From assembly GCA_040220235.1 (NCBI GenBank), contig JAVJTO010000100.1: a stretch of DNA of 33,893 bases; one strand, given 5' to 3'. Shown here piece by piece: positions 6,781 to 10,416 of the stretch (position 1 is its first letter; every line of letters begins with the position of its first letter). The notes below the pieces were generated by a model. That model searched no databases and was not told the origin of the DNA. It saw only the letters and a list, made by a program, of their open reading frames with translations. Origin of the DNA: Coleofasciculus sp. B1-GNL1-01 (GTDB lineage Bacteria > Cyanobacteriota > Cyanobacteriia > Cyanobacteriales > Coleofasciculaceae). Position numbers and translations under genes: made by a program.

Positions 6781-6865
6781 TCGTTAACCTTTATGGTTTG
6801 AGGGTTGATGGTCTAACCTTTAACAATTGAAGTTTAAGCGTTAAGCGTTGAGCGTTAAGCTTTAA
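6781..6865 (-). repeat. Twelve phased degenerate heptamers, consensus TYAAnnn
   Basis: TTAAAGC TTAACGC TCAACGC TTAACGC TTAAACT TCAATTG TTAAAGG TTAGACC (A) TCAACCC TCAAACC ATAAAGG TTAACGA. Confidence 0.85.
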
Positions 6866-7746: not shown

Positions 7747-7823
7747 TGGTGGCGGGGGCAGGAGTTGCACCTGCTGATATCCAGGATATGAGCCTAGCAA
7801 GCCACTGTTGCTTCATCCCCGCG
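7747..7823 (-). tRNA. tRNA-fMet(CAU)-like, atypical
   Basis: CGCGGGG/CCCCGCC with C1-C72 mismatch, loop CT-CAT-AT, T-loop TGCAACT, encoded ACCA. Confidence 0.75.
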
Positions 7824-8445: not shown

Positions 8446-8552
8446 CGGAGAGGACAGGATTTGTTCGCGAAGCTTTCTCGAAGAGTAGCTGCAATGGGTT
8501 GCCCCATGCTTCCTTAGCAGGGAAGTGCTTTCACCAATTCAGCCACCTCTCC
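8446..8552 (-). pseudogene. trnS: tRNA-Ser(GCU) interrupted in the T-arm by a 25-nt repeat insertion
   Basis: GGAGAGG/CCTCTCC + G73, CTTCC-CTGCTAA-GGAAG, long variable hairpin; GCAG[25 nt]CAAATCCTGT replaces GCAGGTTCAAATCCTGT. Confidence 0.82.
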
Positions 8553-10392: not shown

Positions 10393-10416
10393 GACATAAG
10401 ACATAAGACATAAGAC
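10393..10416. repeat. STRR-like heptamer tandem (GACATAA)x3
   Basis: Perfect short tandem repeat next to a stop codon. Confidence 0.6.

Follow-up and report, generated by a model that had tools for sequence, protein, structure and literature searches.

Several described systems share features with the locus reported here, which lies in a 33,893-nt stretch of Coleofasciculus DNA (hereafter, the window). TRAP is an 11-mer, and its trp leader target carries (G/U)AG repeats. The repeat tract in the window resembles this arrangement in that it combines fixed and free positions in a periodic motif and, as we propose, may offer one unit to each protein subunit, but it differs in having a 7-nt period and in residing within a dedicated closed RNA rather than a leader. 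Moreover, the predicted structure of the neighboring 209-amino-acid protein is mostly helical whereas TRAP is formed of beta-sheet, and TRAP is not present among the fold matches listed. Ro60/Rsr and its Y RNA partner (YrlA) provide another parallel, which includes a protein gene with an accompanying RNA, a stem that closes the RNA ends, a tRNA-like module, and a connection to RNA repair and translational stress. Y RNAs are not known to carry a periodic tract, and the locus is not a Ro60-Y RNA system, as judged by finding neither a TROVE domain nor a YrlA match at the RNA.

The genomic setting recalls a third system, the cyanobacterial tRNA L-arrays. As described in the available portions of two reports (PMC8421152; PMC10272220), TrcR represses such arrays, which are induced when translation is impaired, and the TIGR02452 family is induced in a trcR mutant (PMC10272220). 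The same portions of these two reports make no mention of the 209-amino-acid protein gene or of an embedded RNA that is not a tRNA. Two additional points of comparison are the protein family DUF6847/DIP1984 (PF20935, NF038048; PDB 3KDQ) and the orphan RNA motif RAGATH-27 (RF03100).

The repeat tract in the window and in relatives

A preliminary description of this DNA claimed twelve TYAA heptamers, including the variants TTAG and ATAA, with one unit extended to 8 nt. This pattern is exact on the minus strand, where the twelve units occupy positions 6865-6781 in the register TYAANNN. Homologues instead define the register YAANNNU, in which the 85-nt tract spans positions 6864-6780 (minus strand) and is composed of seven heptamers, an 8-nt hinge unit (6815-6808, minus strand) and four more heptamers. 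Among homologous units, position 2 is A in 100%, position 3 is A in 97% and position 7 is U in 90%, while position 1 is U in 56% and C in 44%. Because C is so frequent at position 1, a role for the UAA triplets as stop codons, which the initial reading had raised, is not supported.

The tract had also been viewed as weakly structured, and this proved to be only partly correct. Its predicted folding is not more stable than that of dinucleotide shuffles (z -0.63), but its pairing potential is not depleted, with a mean z of -0.96 relative to mononucleotide shuffles among 44 homologues and a predicted unpaired probability of 0.42 versus 0.37 for the rest. Within the tract, covariation analysis gave only scattered column pairs that do not stack, and no stacked covarying helix.

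When the 8.66-Mb genome was scored for phased TYAA motifs, the tract yielded the maximum (18), followed by a homogeneous repeat (12), and windows simulated with the same dinucleotide content reached at most 6 (n = 100); the scoring motif, however, was picked after the tract had been seen, and so the real test of the tract is its conservation. The repeat number and period were counted downstream of homologous genes, as had been recommended, for 69 distinct cyanobacterial tracts with a 3′ anchor. Sixty of these carry the same series of seven heptamers, an 8-mer and four heptamers, and most of the nine that do not fit have an extra slip or insert. Each unit nevertheless occurs in 6 to 22 sequence variants across the cyanobacterial tracts, and column entropy is 0.0-0.23 bits at unit positions 2, 3 and 7 versus 0.75-1.28 bits at positions 4-6. 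This combination of a fixed unit number with a drifting unit sequence fits a model in which each subunit of a protein would contact one unit.

One relative (L180) carries a 38-nt hairpin precisely at the 8-mer, which marks this unit as a hinge, and a similar insert is present in another (L184). Insertions are tolerated at three places: the hinge, the vicinity of the last unit, and a variable domain on the 5′ side of the tract.

Tracts from more distant sources retain the period with a modified layout. Autocorrelation peaks at 7 and 14 are evident in 29 phage or gut-type tracts, which carry seven units, a hinge of 9-11 nt and about five more units, for a total of 98-107 nt when free of inserts. 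Steps of 7 and 8 nt occur side by side in phage T5 and certain others. Given these mixed steps, and the presence of 12 units in cyanobacteria versus about 13 elements in gut phages, the number of subunits in any ring cannot be taken as strict. In one phage clade of 11 near-identical loci, the flanking helices P1 and P3 (see below) are kept and the tract is eroded and irregular. A unit profile, which was derived from cyanobacterial tracts, gave scores of at least 25 downstream of the gene at 74 of 78 cyanobacterial, 27 of 44 viral or gut, and 2 of 10 named-phage loci, and at none of 129 upstream controls. The motif and its period are common to cyanobacteria and to Enterobacteria, Bacillota and Deinococcus hosts.

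These data bear directly on whether the tract is simply an ordinary cyanobacterial short tandem repeat (STRR) that lacks a function of its own. Part of the tract is called by TRF as a 7-mer tandem, and similar homogeneous heptamers exist in the genomes G020, G036 and G060, where the tract part of the search model alone gave 31, 28 and 30 weak matches, respectively; the four of these that were read (L242-L245) are ordinary repeats of a unit nearly identical to that of the tract. The preliminary description had named scattered heptamers and absence beside homologous genes as observations against a binding track, and the first of these indeed applies to other cyanobacterial genomes, whereas the second does not, in that the tract does occur beside homologues. 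As had also been claimed, the tract is unlike the STRR tandems of the window, such as the GACATAA triplicate that is present at position 10393. Eleven of its 12 units differ from each other, it is the only such site in the genome, its unit count is fixed among homologues, it occurs in phages of unrelated hosts, and it is enclosed by covarying helices. Conservation across phyla largely refutes the ordinary-repeat explanation, to which we assign a negligible probability.

Alternatively, the tract might act as a CsrB-like sponge that sequesters an RNA-binding protein or nuclease of the host, in which case the protein encoded next to it would stabilize the core or merely travel along. The many short motifs displayed in a closed loop, the association with stress and phages, and the occurrence of the same heptamers elsewhere in some cyanobacterial genomes are all compatible with this possibility. 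However, a sponge would require neither a fixed count nor a fixed hinge position, and the motif and period are kept from cyanobacteria to Enterobacteria, Bacillota and Deinococcus, always beside one gene. We therefore consider a sponge improbable.

A predicted RNA that encloses the tract

The tract is part of a predicted non-coding RNA of 276 nt (6984-6709, minus strand) that begins 8 nt past the stop codon of the 209-amino-acid protein gene. Its ends are joined by P1, a closing helix of 13 bp (5′ strand 6984-6972, 3′ strand 6721-6709, minus strand) that is bordered by a conserved GAAAA junction after the 5′ strand and a conserved GGCUG junction before the 3′ strand. P2 is formed by 5′ strands of 4 bp (6967-6964) and 7 bp (6959-6953) and by 3′ strands at 6749-6743 and 6737-6734, all on the minus strand, and exhibits two-sided changes in 3 of 4 and 7 of 7 pairs, respectively. 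A conserved AAAU junction together with the P3 5′ strand (6770-6766) occupies positions 6775-6766, and the P3 3′ strand is located at 6727-6723 (both minus strand). P2 crosses P3 to form a pseudoknot, and the tract resides in the loop between the 5′ strands of P2 and P3.

Comparative data support this architecture. Among 31 cyanobacterial sequences, 96.5% of the cells in the core pairing are paired and 20 of 29 pairs carry two-sided changes; slid controls reached only 32-43% and none of 500 shuffles scored as high, a test that is inflated by the relatedness of the sequences, many loci being close kin. Additional evidence comes from 46 dereplicated RNAs from all sources, two of which (L114 and L116) have doubtful 5′ ends and were left out of later counts. 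In this set, the GAAAA, AAAUCC and GGCUG junctions are nearly invariant, and two P3 positions that were unconstrained by the search are paired in 45 of 46 and 46 of 46 RNAs, using all four Watson-Crick pair types. P1 forms a closed helix of 13-14 bp, although its complementarity was partly selected by the search procedure. P2 is clear in the cyanobacterial alignment and weaker across all groups, where the cognate partner exceeds the mean non-cognate partner in 36 of 46 RNAs but is the best of all partners in only six. We are nearly certain that the RNA is real, and the tract represents the loop domain of a conserved, pseudoknot-closed RNA gene rather than a free-standing repeat. A role at the level of DNA is unlikely because the flanking helices covary and include conserved G-U pairs on one strand.

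Rfam searches of this region of the window yielded no match over the RNA, and RAGATH-27 itself has no match in the window at E 1. In 2 of 16 phage loci scanned, however, this motif does match: in the gut-phage loci L066 and L069, it coincides, above the gathering score, with the 5′-terminal 82-88 nt of RNAs of this class. The overlap encompasses the P1 5′ strand, the GAAAA junction and the P2 5′ strand. RAGATH-27 corresponds to a 5′ fragment with only one hairpin, and it differs from the RNA proposed here in lacking the tract, P1, P3 and the pseudoknot.

The position of the RNA raises the possibility that it is a cis-acting element, either a 3′ regulatory signal or an antitermination or processing signal for the mRNA or the tRNA operon, perhaps with feedback by the protein. 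It is always located on the strand of the gene just past the stop codon, and many cyanobacteria have further tRNA genes beyond it, as might be expected for such an element. Against this, its ends are paired in the closed 13-14-bp helix, and inspection by eye revealed a terminator-like hairpin and U run directly after the RNA in several phages (L108, L110 and L111). Furthermore, the downstream genes vary, and in L039 and L070 another ORF separates the gene from the RNA. We judge a cis-acting role to be about as improbable as a sponge.

The adjacent gene and its association with the RNA

The gene upstream of the RNA (7622-6993, minus strand) codes for a 209-amino-acid helical protein of the PHROG 1491 family (T5.085-like), as indicated by a full-length profile match (E 4.6e-51, residues 1-207). 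Searches of Pfam, NCBIfam and PDB sequences with the single protein gave no match, and the closest database proteins are labelled Coleofasciculus. The family comprises 734 phage records, 18 plasmid records and 2005 clusters at 50% identity. Its structure is confidently predicted (pLDDT 95.7) as a long hairpin of helices together with short strands, and basic residues are conserved at positions 14, 19, 69, 73 and 101, the first of which is Thr in the protein examined here. The PHROG label 'tail fiber' is probably wrong, given the fold, the placement in tRNA regions and the occurrence in cyanobacteria. A genome scan with a distant homologue gave no match.

The closest fold is that of DUF6847 (PDB 3KDQ), which is the first-ranked Foldseek match (E 3e-3). 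It is also the top match by VIA-align, with all 152 residues aligned, a Z score of 11.6 and an rmsd of 8.5 (next best Z 7.8). Because this Z score is below the value of about 13 advised for helical bundles, the assignment relies on the agreement of four methods, which include profile-profile comparison (probability 91-92%) and another comparison (E 0.04). Only the profile-profile result is convincing among the profile searches, the match of the profile to a single DUF6847 sequence being weak (probability 3.8%). The protein is larger than DUF6847 members (209 versus about 150 amino acids) and has no PF20935 or NF038048 match at E 0.1, with weak matches in 6 of 150 relatives. Taken together, these comparisons indicate that the protein is a remote sister of DUF6847 and not a member. 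No DUF6847 family match was found in genome G000, and a viral scan with a DUF6847 protein likewise gave none.

True DUF6847 genes have a conserved RNA-like element of their own downstream. As judged by eye, it contains short repeats and in many cases a T-loop, and its core differs from the one described above. The present model matched this element in none of seven loci, and no Rfam family covers it. The elements were seen mostly after the genes in L209-L215, L218-L228, L234 and L235, with L214 seemingly lacking one. YrlA is located just upstream of one DUF6847 gene (L220).

The association between the gene and the RNA is consistent across sources. The gene is present in 26 of 61 related genomes, the same conserved block lies downstream of it in 26 of 26 relative loci, and the full-length RNA occurs in those 26 genomes plus one other (G031). 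To extend this comparison, we used a search model that consisted of the tract and 3′ core and was derived from 31 loci (these necessarily match). Among loci that were not used to build it, the model matches 10 of 10 from named phages and 3 of 4 from plasmids. It also matches 70 of 80 viral contigs (nine in the model, and many near duplicates), the ten missed contigs belonging to the single clade of 11 near-identical loci in which the core is kept and the tract is eroded, and 73 of 78 genome loci (13 in the model). Of the five missed genome loci, three end near or in the gene and two (L202 and L203) carry gene fragments. The RNA is always on the strand of the gene, and in 103 of 135 loci it starts no more than 35 nt from the stop codon.

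In phage T5, the RNA follows gene T5.085 (model E 3.7e-12) and lies at about 43,500-43,150 on the minus strand. It is unannotated in the T5 record and is distinct from the annotated RNAX, a separate stable RNA of 719 nt (40848-41566, corresponding to L247 2849-3567) that lies 1.6 kb away. The T5 annotation lists RNAX as an RNA of unknown function. In two phage contigs, the gene is preceded by a RAGATH-36 RNA (L027 928-1055 and L093 299-428).

The sole RNA without an adjacent gene is the one in G031 (L241, G031:C53), which is almost intact and embedded in a tRNA array. At this locus, an inverted macrodomain-like ORF is located upstream in place of the gene, and two junction bases deviate from the consensus. 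Co-occurrence across phyla and across phages lends strong support to the link between the tract and the adjacent gene that the preliminary description assumed, and the RNA very probably works with the 209-amino-acid protein.

One form that such a partnership might take is that of an antitoxin-like keeper, wherein the RNA would hold the protein, as a ring or filament, in an inactive state and RNA loss would free the active protein, as in type III toxin-antitoxin systems. The tight one-to-one linkage is in keeping with this proposal: the RNA occurs once without the gene, no intact gene with enough flank lacks the RNA core among the loci examined, and two fragments of the gene (L202 and L203) have no RNA match. 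Yet the protein matches no nuclease family or known toxin fold, the units are 7-nt motifs rather than repeated folded modules, the RNA is downstream rather than upstream of the gene, and the pair is common in lytic phages. A keeper function is for these reasons improbable, if less so than a sponge or a cis-acting element.

Genomic setting and a possible RNA-protein particle

Directly upstream of the gene lies a tRNA array (9038-7671, minus strand) with 12 genes called by ARAGORN and two degenerate ones (8446-8552, with an insertion in the T arm, and 7751-7822, both minus strand) that were identified by Rfam and not by ARAGORN. The array is preceded by a sigma-70-like promoter (9165-9136, minus strand) whose -10 element is overlapped by a direct-repeat box of the TrcR type. 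The direct-repeat motif of the Anabaena trn operon, taken from the available portions of PMC8421152 and PMC10272220, has one exact match (9155-9136, with 0.06 expected). By its long array and the published motif over the -10 box, the locus qualifies as a TrcR-regulated tRNA L-array, and it shares with this regulon a nearby TIGR02452 gene. By analogy, it may be induced when translation is impaired.

The recurrent cyanobacterial neighbors of the gene-RNA pair are PARG (17 loci), NADAR (13), macrodomain (10), HNH and RNA ligase genes. In the window, a PARG-like TIGR02452 gene (2009-1167) and a tRNA-Arg gene (1142-1070) are encoded on the minus strand, as is the array. Relatives carry the TIGR02452 gene directly after the RNA, whereas here a 1305-amino-acid protein gene intervenes, possibly because the operon was broken up by a rearrangement. 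Elsewhere (G000:C35 37485-47358, L246), TrcR-type boxes occur three more times, ahead of a second L7/L12 gene with a gene for a 493-amino-acid VWA-like protein, and of GNAT genes. This VWA-like protein is 69% identical to the protein encoded immediately before DUF6847 in L211.

The RNA also includes a variable 5′ domain between P2 and the tract. In the window, this domain is a captured pseudo-tRNA (6948-6872, minus strand) with a cloverleaf, an 8-nt anticodon loop, a non-canonical T loop and an encoded CCA; it is called by neither ARAGORN nor Rfam. Cloverleaf-type inserts with covarying stems and drifting anticodons are present in 40 of 62 distinct cyanobacterial RNAs (CCA in 29), and the other 22 carry different hairpins, other tRNA-like forms or deletions. 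ARAGORN makes no call for 17 of the 40 and 13 different calls for the rest, and the T loop is canonical in 17 of the 40. A functional tRNA is thus not indicated, in view of the 8-nt anticodon loop, the altered T loop and the unstable anticodon calls among relatives. A tmRNA was also rejected: neither ARAGORN nor Rfam makes such a call, and stops interrupt all three frames. A circularly permuted tRNA shape, with the T arm ahead of the D arm, is present in L081 and L120-L122, and L115 looks similar by eye. T-loop motifs are rare in gut-phage RNAs, and relaxed ARAGORN searches of the RNAs returned mostly noise. The pseudo-tRNA cannot be the core function, as 22 of 62 cyanobacterial RNAs lack it or have something else in its place and T loops are rare in gut phages. 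The variable module is optional yet repeatedly tRNA-shaped.

We consider slightly more likely than not a model in which the repeats form the loop of the RNA that follows the 209-amino-acid protein gene and act as the binding track for an oligomer of that protein, predicted to be a ring of about twelve subunits that each contact one YAANNNU unit. Periodic binding of the tract by the protein is the somewhat firmer part of this proposal. The number of sites, about twelve, points to a ring with a similar number of subunits, although a closed ring near twelve has slightly less than an even chance of being correct.

In our model, the RNA would be co-transcribed with the array under translational stress, or made during phage infection, and would then be released as a stable RNA that folds into a closed loop. 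The tract would wrap around the protein oligomer, with one unit per subunit, such that the protein reads YAA and U and leaves the remaining bases of each unit free. The 8-nt hinge would loop out, P1-P3 would clamp the loop, and the variable 5′ domain would be displayed outward. In the most speculative step, the particle would be a protected scaffold in conflicts that target translation, here presenting a tRNA-shaped decoy. The module it presents would be swappable, being a captured tRNA in this case and a circularly permuted tRNA or hairpins in others, and the particle would operate both in phages such as T5 and in stressed cyanobacteria. Among possible roles, we think a scaffold in such conflicts the most likely because of the tRNA arrays, the TrcR box, and the PARG, NADAR, macrodomain, HNH and RNA ligase neighbors. 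Even so, a decoy or display role for the particle is doubtful at present, and the complete picture of a widespread, undescribed RNP class, with a helical ring of about 12 subunits, a clamped RNA loop and a swappable module used for decoy or docking in attacks on translation, is only slightly less tentative.

A search of mainly open-access literature uncovered no description of the gene-RNA pair, which is also not mentioned in the available portions of PMC7824862 and bioRxiv 2023.03.15.532788; the original description of RAGATH-27 may mention the link to the gene. The pair likely forms a particle hitherto undescribed in the literature searched. If this is true, then bacteria and phages share a new kind of RNA-protein particle, whose gene is found in 734 catalogued phage genomes. 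Among these is the model phage T5, whose record labels the gene as tail fiber and has no annotation for the RNA. The orphan motif RAGATH-27 would gain a full structure and a partner, and an RNA ligand would be suggested for the unexplained 3KDQ/DUF6847 fold. Moreover, such a ring, with its tolerance for large RNA inserts, could serve as a display scaffold, and the function of the pair is open to direct testing in T5 and Escherichia coli.
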